Below are positions 44,205 through 57,316 of a DNA stretch of 64,000 nucleotides, one piece after another; position 1 is the first letter of the stretch, and every line of letters starts with the position of its first letter. The position numbers and the translations under genes are program-made. This DNA comes from Octopus vulgaris (taxonomy: Eukaryota): the NCBI GenBank assembly GCA_951406725.2, contig OX597817.1, forward strand, positions 94,364,001-94,428,000, written 5' to 3'. A model generated the notes under the pieces. That model worked only from the letters and a program-made list of their open reading frames with translations. It was not told where the DNA came from and searched no databases.

Positions 44205-44479
44205 TGACTATTGAGTAAATGTAACATATTATTTTATTGATAAATGTCCTCTATTTACATAATATTGAGGTCTCTTTCTTTCTTTTGTTATCTTACCGTT
44301 TTTGCCAATAATTAAGGGTTTAGCAACAAGTTGCTTCACCACATACCGAAAATTTTAGAAATACCAGCCAAAAGATTGCTATTTCTTTTTTCTACAAAAT
44401 ATGTCTCCGCAGATAACAATATTTGTAACTCACATAGGCAAAAAGAAAGAAAATAATGAAATCAAACAGTCTTCGATTA

Positions 44480-44537
44480 ATTATGGACGCGCTTCTGGAT
44501 TAGAATTATAAAAATTCCTTTCCGTCATCAACATAAT
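44480..44537 (-). ncRNA. F1 hammerhead motif (UUGAUGA core; GAAA mutated to GAAG)
   Basis: Minus: AUUAUG-UUGAUGA-CGGA...UCCA-GAAG-CGCG-UC-CAUAAU. Confidence 0.65.
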
Positions 44538-44715
44538 ATTTCGAGAATTATAAATTTGAAAATTATAAATTTGAAAATGCTAAGAAAACTACTTGGTAAA
44601 ATTTGTTAATATAAGTTTGGATATGCTGATTAGCTTGTGTATGTTCTGATGGCGCATGCTCAGAAATACAAGAGGTAAGTTTTCCTAGCGTTTTCAAATT
44701 TATAATTCTCGAAAT

Positions 44716-44773
44716 ATTATGTTGATGACAGAAATGAATTTTTATAATTCTGATCCAGAAACGCGTCCATAAT
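44716..44773 (+). ncRNA. F1 hammerhead motif (UUGAUGA core)
   Basis: AUUAUG-UUGAUGA-[29 nt stem-loop]-GAAA-CGCG-UC-CAUAAU; 6 bp helix I, palindromic ACGCGU helix III, GUC triplet. Confidence 0.8.
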
Positions 44774-45438
44774 TAATCGAAGACTGTTTGATTTCATTAT
44801 TTTCCGCCTTTTTGCCTATGTGAGTTCCAAATATTGTTATCTGTGGAGACATATTTTGTAGAAAAAAGAAATAGCGGTCTTTTGGCTGCTATTTCTAAAA
44901 TGTTCGGTATGTGGTGAAGCAACTTGTTACTAAACCCTTAATAATTGTTATAATTATATATATATATATAAAAACTTCTTTATATAGGGTTATACCGAAT
45001 ATGGTTCTTTTCCATACCGAAAACTACTTGGTAAAATTTGTTAATTTATTAAAGTAATAATTTTTTACTCTATATCTGTAATGATATATAAATATATATA
45101 TATATATATATATATATATATACATGCATATATATATATATATATATATATATATATATATATATATATATATATATATTTATTTTAAGCAGCAGAAAAA
45201 TCGCTTAAAATAAAGCATATTACTCTACCACTGGTATTTGAGTACTCTTTTTTCCACCTTGTTTCACATTTATGTGTTTACTCCGGTCTATATATATATA
45301 TATATATATATATATATATATATATATAATGTTAATCCAAACAAGAAAACACAGAAAAAAAGAGAAAAAAAAAACACAGCAACGCAGGACGTGGAACAAT
45401 TAAAGTATTATTGACGCTCAGGAAAGAAGGGAAGGAGG

Positions 45439-45474
45439 GTTTAACGTTTCGAGCGGAGGATCTTCGTCGGAAAC
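45439..45474 (-). ncRNA. Minimal hammerhead motif, CCGACGA core variant, in a (TA)n-anchored PLE-like terminal fragment (~45329-45900)
   Basis: Minus: GUUU-CCGACGA-a-GAUC-cucc-GCUC-GAAA-CG-UU-AAAC; palindromic AACGUU. Confidence 0.65.
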
Positions 45475-52920: not shown

Positions 52921-54065
52921 TGTACATTTTAATGTAACATTGTTTTGTTATCTAAAAATACGGTGCTTGGTATTTTTGTTAGAAACCAATTCCTTCCTCA
53001 GAGGAAGAATTTAAATAGTAAAAAGAGAGCACGCGCGCAGACACACACACACACACACACACACACACACACACACACACACACACACACACATATTAGT
53101 AAGTTAAATGAGAACTCCATTACGTAATAAATTGTAGGCATAAAGGCAGGCTCAGCTTATCCAATGTCCAGCGTTTAACCCAATACCTCGGGCCGACCAA
53201 AGCCTTTTGAGTTGATTTGAATTTGATAGACGGAAACTGAAAGAAGATATATATATATATATATATATATATATATATATATATATATACACACGTCTGT
53301 CGTATATATATATATATATATATATATATATATATATATATATATATACAGACAGTTGTTTTTAAACTATGGAAAACAACTTGCGTGGATGAAGAAACTA
53401 ACTCCTTACAACGCTGGGATAAACAAGCCAATTTCTTTAATAACTACGAAACTCAGTTTAACATAGAAAACGCATCGGATAACCCCTTCCTGAAGAAAAA
53501 TAAACCAAAAACAGACACAGAAATGACCCCACGTGCATTAAACACAAACCACAGACGGTCTAGGGGACGTAACTCGACCTTCTTTAACTCTCTTACTCCA
53601 CCAAATAACTATCAAACAACTATAGATTATTCAACCCACAGGAGTAAATCTTCAAGGTATCCCACATACAAAACAAAGATTTCATCGGAACTTCCAGACT
53701 AACCTAAGTTTTGGTGAACCAGTTCCTACCAGGAAGAACTTACCTCCGATACTTTACCCCCAACACAGCCACTTCAAGCAGTCAACGAGACAAAACATGA
53801 CTAGACAACATAACCTCTCCCTCCAACCATATCACAATATTCAAAATCAAACAAACCCAAACTACATTAGCCACAGACGATATAACAACCCTCAGTACAA
53901 CCATAATCCAGTACACTACACAACCACTCCACCACAAACATACTACCATAGACACACTTTACACCCAACTTTCCCTCAGCAAACCAAACAAAATACAGGC
54001 CTTCCACTACAATCCACATACTACAACCATTTTTTAGACGCAAACCAGAGAAACAGAGATGTGAA

Positions 54066-56362
54066 ATGGAAATAAATAAACAAGTCCAACCGAAAATAAT
54101 CAACCTGACAAAGAAAATCCTGAGTTCTATACAAATCAAAACCCTAGCAAGAGGTTTAAAATTTACCCTTACCCCCACAGATCGAACCCAAATGAAATTA
54201 AGGACAATACTTTGGACTTCTGCCGTAAATTACGCCTCACAGAAGCTCTTTACAACTACACCAGTGAAGATGATTCAATAGTGAAAAACAAAAGTGAGTA
54301 CCATCCTACAAAAGGTAGAAATAAAGCACTTGATGTTTTCTGTGATCACATAACTTGTTTTTCTTACAATACCATTCCAAAACAACATATCAAATCCAAC
54401 CTTAATTTAAATGAATGGAAAGACCTTGTCGAGCTAAAAAATGATATAAACCCCACTATTAAAGAAGCCGACAAAGGAAGTGCGGTAGTATTGATGGATA
54501 CAGAGTACTACAAAAATTTAATACTTTCCATGTTGGAAAATAATACTTACTATGAGAAACTAACATATTACAACCCACAGAAAACACTGAAAAACTTATC
54601 CTCCTTACTCCAAATTTATGGAAACGGTCTGACAACACATGAAATAGACTATTTATCCAATTTCAAATAAAGTCCTAGTCTATTCTACGGATTACCCAAA
54701 ATACATAAAAATCCACTCATTTGTGAAGCCTGCAAAGTCTCTACAAGCCTATGCATTAATGTCCCTCCCCCTACAGACCCCAAACTCAGACCCATCATAG
54801 CTGGCCCTTCTTGTGAAACCCACCGTTTGAGCAACTTCCTCGACATATTACTCAAACCTCTTTTAAAATATGTGAAAAGCTTTATCAGGGATGACCTAGA
54901 CATGCTGAACCACCTCCCGAAGACAGTAAAGGACGGAACACTACTGGTATCTTTCGACGTGGTGAATCTATACACCAATATCCCACACGACTATGGTATA
55001 GAATCAATCACATTTTGGCTAGAAAAATACCCAGAAGAGATCCCAGGACGAATTAACCACTATTTTATAATTGAAGCACTGAAATTCGTCCTGCTGAACA
55101 ATCACTTCTTGTTCGATACTACTTACTATCGACAAAAATGCGGTATTGCAATGGGAACCAGAGCTGCTCCAGTGATTGCAAACCTCGTAATGGGTTACCA
55201 CGAACTCAAGTTATACCAATCATCACTAGAAAAATTTGGCGCCTCTTTTAATTGTTATTTAAAGGAGAACTGGAAGAGATATTTAGATGATTGCTTCATA
55301 CTTTGGAAAGACAGCATGGATCAACTCCTTGATTTCAAAAGAATGCTCAACAACATACACAGCAATATACAATTCACTATGGAATACAACAGTAAGCAAC
55401 TCCCTTTTCTAGACATCTTAATTAGAATAGTTATCAACCACATAGAAACAGACATCTTTTATAAACCCACAGATTCTAAACAATACCTATTATTTAACTC
55501 CTGCCACCCCAAACACATAAAAATCAGCATACTCTTTAACCTAGCAAAAAGAATCTGCACCATAGTTTCCGATACTTATACTCGAGAACATAGACTCCTT
55601 CAACTTAAATCTACATTAACTAAAAGACATTACCCAATCTCATTAGTAAGTGAAGGCATCAAAAGAGCTAAGGAAATAGACATACAAATGTTAAGGAAAA
55701 CTAGCCGAAATACTAAACAAGACTTAAAAATACTCCCGTACATTTTCACACATAACCCCAGAAACAACGAAGCCTTCAACATCATCACCCAAAACCTTCC
55801 CATCCTCACAGCAGACAAAACAATGAACGAAATTTTAAGCTCATATAAAATTATAAAAAGCAAAAAGCAACCGAAGTCACTGAAAAAAATATTAACCAGC
55901 GCTAGACTGTATCCACTAACAACAGAGCCAAAAGTGACAAAATGTGGACGTTCTAACTGTGGAACACGCCCCCACCTTCTGGAGGGTTCAGAATTCCAAT
56001 TCAAACAAGGAGAAATATTTAAGATCAAATCAAATTCCACCTGCGCCTCAGCAAATGTAATCTATGTCATGACATGCATAGGATGTGGTAAACTCTATAT
56101 TGGACAAACAGGAATTTCGCTCCGTCAAAGAATCACTATTCACAAAGAGCAAATCCGTCACCCACAATACAGACAGTTAAAGGTGAGTGAACATATAGAA
56201 AGGTGTGCCAGGAATCTTAATCCCAATTTCCAAATATTTCCCTTTTACCAATGTTCACAGAACACCACAATGCAACAAAGGTTGAATAAAGAGGCATTTT
56301 TCATCAATAAATTTCTCCCCCAACTAAATATGAACACACAACTCAATACAGAACACCACTAA
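54066..56362 (+). pseudogene. PLE RT / GIY-YIG polyprotein, nearly intact (one frameshift near 54180, one TAA at 54668)
   Basis: IINL...L.RGLKF, FCRKLRL, IKEADKGSAVV, FYGLPKIHK, LRPIIA, SFDVVNLYTNIP, GIAMGT..AP, WKRYLDD, LPFLDI, CGRSNCGT linker, VIYVMTC..C...YIGQT, LRQR...H. ORFs 54212..54670 and 54827..56362 share a frame. Confidence 0.92.
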
Positions 56363-56531
56363 CTCTTCAATTGAAACCACTAACCCCTATACACGTCCGA
56401 CACCACTCAGATTTCTAAATCCAGAACTACTTACCTCCCTTACAAATAATCCAGAACTACTTACCTCCCTTACAAATAATATTTTTTCTCAGGAACTATT
56501 AGACTTGACACCGTGTATTAGCCGGTGCTTC

Positions 56532-56568
56532 AAACGATGAAAAGATTTGCGTAAACCATGGTCCGTTT
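56532..56568 (+). ncRNA. Decayed hammerhead remnant in the Neptune-like 3' region
   Basis: AAACG-(CUG missing)AUGA-...-UAAA-CCAUGG-UC-CGUUU; helix I and palindromic helix III retained, core broken. Confidence 0.4.
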
Positions 56569-56864
56569 TGTTCTCTTACTTTATTATCATCTTATAATCA
56601 TCTTATAACAATGACTTTTTTGACTCGTATTACTACCTCAGTCAATCTAAATGTATATATTTGTCGTTACCTGTCATAAATAGCCTTTTTTTTATTTGCA
56701 ATGTGCATTTTCGTTGATTTTTCATATTTTACCCTTACATTTCCACGTGTATTTTCTATTTTCTTTTTGTAACATATTTCTACTATATATATATATATAT
56801 ATATATATATATATATATATATATATATATATATTTATTTATTTATTTATTTATTTATTTATTT

Positions 56865-57316
56865 ATAACAATAATTAAGGGTTTAGCAACAAGTTGCTTC
56901 ACCACATACCGAAAATTTTAGAAATAGCAGCCACAGATAAGAATATTTGTAACTCGCATAGGCAAAAAGAATAAAAATAATGAAATCACACAGTCTTCGA
57001 TTAATTATGGACGCGTTTCCGGATTAGAATTATAAAAATTCATTTTCGTCATCAACATAATATTTCGAGAATTATAAATCTGAAAATGCTAGGAAAACTT
57101 ACTCCTTGCATTTCTGACCAAGCGCCATCAAAACATACAAAATTTAATCAGCATATCCACATTTATATAGACCAGTGATTTCGTATGCCCCTCCAAGTTT
57201 ACCATGTGCGTCACAAGATAGTACTGCAGAAAAAGATCGGCAGTTTTGTTATCGGGGAGTGAAATAATCATTACAGATATAGGGTAAAAAATTATTAATT
57301 TAATAAATTAACAAAT
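56865..57316 (-). mobile_element. F1 copy running through the unit junction (permuted or tandem)
   Basis: Contains the F1 body, then ~100 nt not seen in other copies, then CATTACAGATATAG..., which starts the 48209 copy. Confidence 0.85.
57004..57061 (-). ncRNA. F1 hammerhead motif (UUGAUGA core)
   Basis: Minus: AUUAUG-UUGAUGA-CGAA...UCCG-GAAA-CGCG-UC-CAUAAU. Confidence 0.78.

Follow-up and report, generated by a model that had tools for sequence, protein, structure and literature searches.

Non-LTR (long terminal repeat) retrozymes were defined by Cervera and de la Pena (2020; PMC7229834), who named Penelope-like elements (PLEs) as their likely mobilisers, and animal retrozymes have since been argued to be non-autonomous PLE derivatives (Li, Clavereau and Pollet 2026; bioRxiv 10.64898/2026.07.22.740005). 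The units of the latter study span 51-972 bp, many of them are monomers, and no mollusc was sampled. PLE-driven movement of animal retrozymes is therefore a published proposal, which rests on co-occurrence and on similarity to the pseudo-LTRs (pLTRs) of PLEs. Here we describe F1, a repeat family with four copies (A to D) in a 64,000-nucleotide stretch of the Octopus vulgaris genome (GCA_951406725.2, contig OX597817.1, positions 94,364,001 to 94,428,000), which we refer to as the window and whose numbering is used throughout. F1 resembles the non-LTR retrozymes of both studies in its short non-coding unit, a GC content below 45%, a type I hammerhead, more-than-unit organisation and the presence of PLEs in the same genome. 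In contrast to them, F1 was not observed as a full tandem with two hammerheads and is known here from DNA alone, its unit is longer than the 170-400-nt circles of invertebrates, and its hammerhead is of the PLE type, with an extra base after A9, a long helix II and U3.

With the pLTRs and minimal hammerheads of endonuclease-bearing PLEs (PMC4209133; PMC8557442; PMC11167929), F1 shares 5′ truncation, partial tandems, an adjacent inverted copy and (TA)n targets, as well as two 3′ ends, a palindromic helix III and, probably, the U3-A8 variant. Unlike these pLTRs, F1 passes from its distal end through a 95-nt linker into the repeat again, with no open reading frame (ORF) in between; its two ends lie 136 nt rather than 30-40 nt apart, and there is an extra base before G12. 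The non-autonomous PLE MRC1 of Chlamydomonas likewise lacks an ORF and forms pLTR-like partial tandems, but elements of this type resemble an autonomous family at the 3′ end, whereas the 3′ end of F1 is unlike the three PLE remains of the window. Most Chlamys elements lack a canonical hammerhead (PMC8557442). For cephalopod genomes, Penelope elements and 235 hammerhead matches have been reported, in the accessible text without F1-like detail (PMC8967140; PMC6962438). No description of the F1 family was found in the literature; Repbase and Dfam lay outside this search, so F1 may already be catalogued. It is probably a fresh example of an already published kind of element and no new class. Our favoured reading, which we consider probable from the sequence evidence, is that F1 is a non-autonomous, non-LTR-retrozyme-like PLE, copied in trans by the reverse transcriptase (RT) and endonuclease of a PLE from RNA of more than unit length into nicked AT-rich DNA.

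The original prediction had described four related pieces without a meaningful ORF, and this was borne out. In their shared parts the copies differ pairwise by 1.4-9.8% (self-comparison and alignment), a diagnostic 28-mer occurs four times in the window and not once in 100 shuffles, the GC content is 24-30%, and the longest stop-free stretch in any of the six frames is 64 codons. Comparison of F1 with the PLE proteins of the window (tblastn) gave nothing significant except microsatellite noise. A 47-codon frame starting from an ATG at the distal end of copy D was considered as a relic ORF and rejected; it has no match to these proteins. The sense strand of F1 was taken to be that of the hammerhead, which places B on the plus strand and A, C and D on the minus strand (Table 1).

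As had been claimed, two copies (B and C) stop at CTGTAATG followed by (AT)n, while D reads through this point. Copy D starts with the final 48 nt of the unit, passes the distal end, continues into a linker of about 95 nt, which within the window is found in this copy only, and then enters the body that it has in common with B. There is a second, proximal 3′ site, which precedes the distal one by about 136 nt. Copy A finishes there and D near it, inside (TAAA)n(TA)n, such that each site is used by two of the four copies. The 5′ part of B consists of 30 nt of late-unit sequence (44584-44613, identical to 45019-45048) fused to the body with the linker absent, and A and B stand head to head, their 5′ ends meeting at a 7-nt overlap. 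The distance from the B cut site to the distal end (316 nt) and that from the D distal end to the cut site (259 nt) add up to a unit of 575 nt, with the closed order distal end, linker, body, hammerhead, distal end.

To assess the family beyond the window, contigs of four out of 24 listed public runs were aligned to copy D at 80% likeness: X1, X2 and X3, which carry three organism labels, and X12, an RNA run by guess. None of the 24 is listed as an RNA run. The aligned F1 contigs numbered 1622, 1173, 629 and 149, respectively. Judged from these sequences, F1 is abundant and shared across runs. All run data are contigs, in which circles and RNA ends are not visible; arrays are not visible in collapsed contigs, and summed depths are not copy numbers. 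A metagenome scan with a 28-nt motif returned 0 matches. The boundary between distal end and linker (57268|57269) is crossed by nine of the nine listed pieces covering 57250, four of them with at least 31 letters on each side (one from X1, two from X2, one from X3) and five with 17-30 letters on the short side. These pieces differ from D by 5.6-14.4%, X2 alone has four of different extent, and piece 21 is unbroken over 57063-57311. Neither D nor any of the nine listed linker pieces, in a listing that favours long pieces, has an RT or endonuclease ORF between the repeat ends; in D and the listed contigs, read-through past the F1 3′ end returns into the unit and not into an ORF. Since the junction recurs in diverged contigs, the closed ORF-less order is a trait of the family rather than an accident at D. 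The recurring junction also supports the earlier proposal of a tandem or circular template, in the form of a more-than-unit template without an ORF. A closed, ORF-less unit of about 575 nt in many copies speaks against a plain solo pLTR, and this alternative, which had been raised from the start, is weakened by the occurrence of the closed junction under three organism labels.

The insertions bear the marks described for PLEs. Typical PLE insertions are truncated at the 5′ end and partially tandem, and an inverted copy frequently lies at that end (PMC8557442); compared with these, F1 shows 5′ truncation, a partial tandem and an inverted 5′ copy. Copies B, C and D end in AT repeats, A lies at an AT-rich 6-nt overlap, and there is no poly(A) tail. 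The proposed targeting of (TA)n is thereby supported as PLE-type insertion at AT-rich targets. In the anole, the PLE protein nicks both strands of AT-rich DNA and begins to copy from two internal positions of the RNA, which it uses mainly in uncut form (PMC11167929). On this model, a few master F1 loci would yield read-through RNA longer than one unit. Inside this RNA the enzyme would start at either of two sites separated by 136 nt, and a few bases of A/T overlap would prime the copying on the target DNA. Most copies would stop early. Some would exceed one unit, as in D and, following a deletion, in B, and a pair of copies could join 5′ to 5′ (A and B). The hammerhead, with a palindromic helix III of 2 bp, would cut only as a dimer in multimeric RNA.

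Relative to the distal end, which is itself covered 8-22 times more deeply than the linker, coverage of 56894-56909 is higher by a further factor of 9-19. This profile suggests that the bulk of the copies consists of short 3′ ends. It also suggests that either copying starts mainly at the proximal site or the segment is common to sister families; the surrounding stretch 56878-56925 is a candidate RT signal. At the predicted cut, X1 depth shows no drop (51,217 at 56989 and 40,983 at 57020), and all three hammerhead-bearing copies span the cut site, which argues that cut linear monomers are not the main template. Strand-changing joints account for six of the joints among the 15 of 24 that were listed. 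Four of these six end at 57092-57098, two of which may be one locus, and copy A turns close by, at 57099 (D coordinates). We did not treat five 'skip' joints from 57094-57101 as deletions, as the intervening letters are marked unknown. The cluster at 57092-57099 sits at a splice-donor-like motif and could mark a template end or a pause site. An intron in D, of the kind found in Penelope pLTRs, was considered, since 57102-57097 resembles a splice donor and part of the linker an acceptor, and was rejected; the acceptor A (57225) is altered in 92% of X1 depth. Twin priming of A and B from a single template was also rejected. The two differ by 6.3% (95% interval 3.7-9.9), as against 2.6% (1.5-4.1) for the pLTR pair of the neighbouring element PLE1, and two templates or two events are therefore likelier.

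A strict hammerhead descriptor gave three matches across the window, in B, in D and, unrelated to F1, at 50677-50614, compared with 0.17 per shuffled window, and the minimal form of the motif seen in B and D occurred 0.03 times per shuffled window (30 shuffles each). The F1 hammerhead motif is beyond chance. It is of type I, with the six of six pairs of helix I, the 3x3 loop and the 4-bp closing stem complete in all three copies that carry it and with the core and GUC present. The long helix II contains two extra bases, one following A9 and the other preceding G12. Helix III is a 6-nt palindrome in which two pairs enclose a GC loop; its self-pairing energy is -7.5 kcal/mol. The F1 motif matches published PLE hammerheads in the extra base following A9, the G10.1-C11.1 pair and the palindromic helix III; a U3-A8 variant of PLE hammerheads has been described, and they need a dimer and cleave weakly in vitro (PMC4209133). 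The ten-base end of the F1 hammerhead is absent from the supplement of PMC8557442 and gives no clade assignment. Among the 40 of 99 differences listed for the public runs, position 8 is A in 62-64% of depth in X1-X3, position 3 is without a change, and 97% of X1 depth has the helix II base that D lacks. The family columns, as seen in the contigs, look more intact than the hammerheads of the window copies, and U3-A8 pairing is likely in the wider family. The unrelated match on the minus strand at 50677-50614 has a helix I of 5 bp and no closing pair in helix II, and may be chance.

Several findings weigh against the reading of F1 as a trans-mobilised PLE derivative, and the first of them concern the hammerhead. 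It had been claimed that three copies retain the same ribozyme; the motif is indeed present in A, B and D, but GAAACGCGUC occurs only in B and D, while A reads GAAG. By sequence, none of the three is a flawless ribozyme: A is damaged at 15.1, B at 10.1 and D at 10.2, and all three have U3.G8. The U3-A8 pairing was deduced from unphased columns, and a G/A change is common anyway. The most favourable fold of the monomer is 3-7 kcal/mol more stable than the hammerhead-like one. Rfam searches of the F1 motif gave no hammerhead match, and the other matches were microsatellite or inversion artefacts; with the window as query, there was no hammerhead among 150 of the 206 rows. Other such points concern the unit and its partner. 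No complete dimer, with both hammerheads pointing the same way, was found in the window, where B and D are partial tandems only. The 136 nt between the two sites exceed the published tail of 30-40 nt, and in blastn F1 shared with the three PLE remains of the window only the junction itself. As for the contigs, the listed pieces are 32 of 3643 and favour long ones, which biases them towards crossing the junction, and two pairs of pieces (8 and 24, 7 and 31) may each be one locus in two organisms. Finally, nowhere is the unit covered more thinly than in the linker, whose depth is lower than that of the distal end by a factor of 8-22. With so thin a linker, most copies would be short ends, assignable to no particular parent element.

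The last point also speaks for the likeliest alternative, namely that most copies are 5′-truncated pLTRs of an autonomous PLE outside the window and that the closed 575-nt form is a minor deletion derivative. The linker is far thinner still when compared with 56878-56925, and there are drops in depth at 57182 and 57230, points from which copies might continue into different upstream sequence. For loose ends, 24 of 480 places are listed, none of them in the linker, and scattered single hammerheads are mostly truncated PLEs (PMC4209133). However, the junction is present in several contigs that are 6-14% apart and come from three organism labels, which implies that the closed form itself has multiplied. 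Moreover, B and D, the copies that reach upstream of the body, carry late-unit sequence there and not coding sequence. Only 2% of the aligned material in X1-X3 continues into unlike sequence, a weak indication given that contigs break at branch points. We regard this alternative as unlikely, although it may hold for the many short copies.

Other alternatives turn on the form of the template. F1 could be a circular-RNA retrozyme, in which dimeric hammerheads cut multimers, the GUC is the ligation point of the resulting monomers of about 575 nt, and the enzyme rounds the circle. This would agree with a junction that is seamless and recurring, with the absence of a depth drop at the cut site, with the alternation of position 8 between two bases able to pair with U3, and with the restored second pair of helix II. 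In addition, all 100 shuffles of B fold less well than B itself (z -5.3), as do 97 of 100 in the case of D (z -2.3), the score of B being raised by an internal TA run, which lessens its value; one contig copy starts exactly at the distal boundary (57098 to 57267), and circles have been demonstrated for repeats of coral, mussel and axolotl (PMC7229834). Those circles, however, are about 170-400 nt in size, with canonical hammerheads and full tandem arrays, whereas a full F1 dimer was not seen. Furthermore, hammerheads of the PLE type cut weakly (PMC4209133), the anole PLE mainly uses uncut RNA (PMC11167929), and only one of nine frog dimers was cleaved in vitro (bioRxiv 10.64898/2026.07.22.740005). 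Since a ligated circle and a tandem RNA differ in the form of the template alone, the same DNA fits both. We place uncut tandem RNA slightly ahead of the ligated circle as the usual template, and hold the circular retrozyme to be improbable. A bolder variant, to which we give hardly more credence, is that F1 is a 575-nt circular RNA parasite of PLEs with a dimer-only ribozyme and two start sites 136 nt apart. Priming on both target strands would then produce cDNAs meeting near 57092-57099 (D coordinates) and hence head-to-head insertions. If true, such a parasite would be a natural high-copy substrate for testing whether PLE proteins mobilise a retrozyme in trans. Spread at the DNA level, by satellite amplification or microsatellite recombination with the hammerhead as a passenger, is very improbable: a tandem array in a collapsed assembly would yield crossing contigs just as observed, and all copies touch low-complexity DNA or another repeat, but the fixed 3′ and variable 5′ ends, the two orientations and the inversion joint are marks of reverse transcription, and an array would not show so very uneven a depth from one part of the unit to another.

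As a non-autonomous PLE, F1 would contribute the anatomy of invertebrate insertions to the published proposal: an ORF-less unit whose copies have fixed start sites and (TA)n targets and form partial tandems and inversions. It also supplies defined RNA ends for an in vitro test. A PLE specialist would not be greatly surprised by it.

Two PLEs lie next to F1 copies. Both PLE1 and PLE2 are interrupted by stops and frameshifts; PLE1 has many relatives of about 700 amino acids (aa), and the PLE2 protein is 46-49% identical to proteins of pearl oyster, oyster and mussel. A is joined tail to tail to the 3′ pLTR of PLE1 via the 6-nt overlap at 44306-44311, where the predicted CAATAA is present. D and PLE2 likewise stand tail to tail, separated by about 80 nt of (TA)n/(TTTA)n. 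The statement that copies sit directly after both autonomous PLEs consequently holds for the adjacency, but both PLEs are decayed and D keeps its distance from PLE2. By sequence identity, F1 is not the terminal repeat of PLE1 or PLE2. If (TA)n tracts are treated as a target of both, the placement of two out of three F1 loci at the ends of PLEs has a P of ∼0.03-0.09, an after-the-fact estimate. This position hints at shared targets or at insertion into PLE ends, and does not name a partner. The adjacency is poor evidence of a partnership, given the lack of shared sequence, the distinct hammerhead-like motifs and the common preference for (TA)n. A (TA)n-targeting Hydra-clade PLE of Octopus bimaculoides is included in the supplement of PMC8557442.

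Table 1. Positions of the F1 copies, their parts and the adjacent PLEs in the window
Feature	Position	Strand	Description
Copy A	44306-44590	-	5′-truncated; end at proximal 3′ site; 15-nt internal duplication
Copy B	44609-45085	+	body with hammerhead; proximal site at 44947; (AT)n follows distal end at 45083
Copy C	48207-48437	-	final 231 nt of unit; 5′-truncated; (TA)n on both sides; without hammerhead
Copy D	56860-57316	-	partial tandem: last 48 nt of one unit, linker, hammerhead body; 39-nt deletion
A/B inversion joint and 30-nt late-unit piece ahead of B body	44584-44613	+	7-nt overlap 44584-44590
Linker	57175-57268	-	∼95 nt; closes unit (distal end to body); copy D and public-run contigs
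Deepest-covered F1 segment	56878-56925	-	just upstream of proximal 3′ end; present in 4/4 copies
Hammerhead of A	44486-44531	-	core U3 to C17; damaged at A15.1 (GAAG)
Hammerhead of B	44722-44767	+	predicted cut after 44767; 10.1-11.1 pair broken
Hammerhead of D	57010-57055	-	predicted cut after 57010; second helix II pair broken
PLE1	40557-44311	+	decayed; Hydra-clade motifs (RWK, CxC linker); pLTR pair 2.6% apart
PLE2	53350-56780	+	decayed element with RT and C-terminal GIY-YIG; relatives in bivalves

The PLEs of the window have hammerhead-like motifs of their own, as judged by eye. On the plus strand, the PLE1 pLTRs (44140-44205 and 41076-41135) carry a degenerate motif with a long helix II and an extra base before GAAA, unlike that of F1. 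A degenerate motif with a palindromic helix III lies in the 3′ untranslated region of PLE2 (56528-56570, plus strand), of which an upstream pLTR copy was not seen. A third PLE remnant (59129-59659, plus strand) is a 3′ part and kin of PLE1 (64% identity over 109 aa). Just upstream of PLE1 ends a 189-nt duplication, in which 38466-38654 recurs at 40368-40556 (97% identical).

The window has a GC content of 0.37 and is rich in microsatellites, with 32 merged (TA)n tracts. The 5′ end of D adjoins another dispersed repeat, which resembles a short interspersed element. It is located at 59836-60240 (plus strand), with copies at 15063, 16500, 18586-19029, 37776, 53186 and 57314-57447. Long AT-rich inverted repeats or palindromes, similar to miniature inverted-repeat transposable elements, are present at 50855-51080, 19588-19832, 20053-20188 and 58967-59138. 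Lastly, inspection of the ORF list by eye revealed remnants resembling mariner, hAT and pogo-type transposases and an RT of the long interspersed element type at 1898-2773, 6095-6595, 9595-10137, 10979-13095 and 31750-33178.

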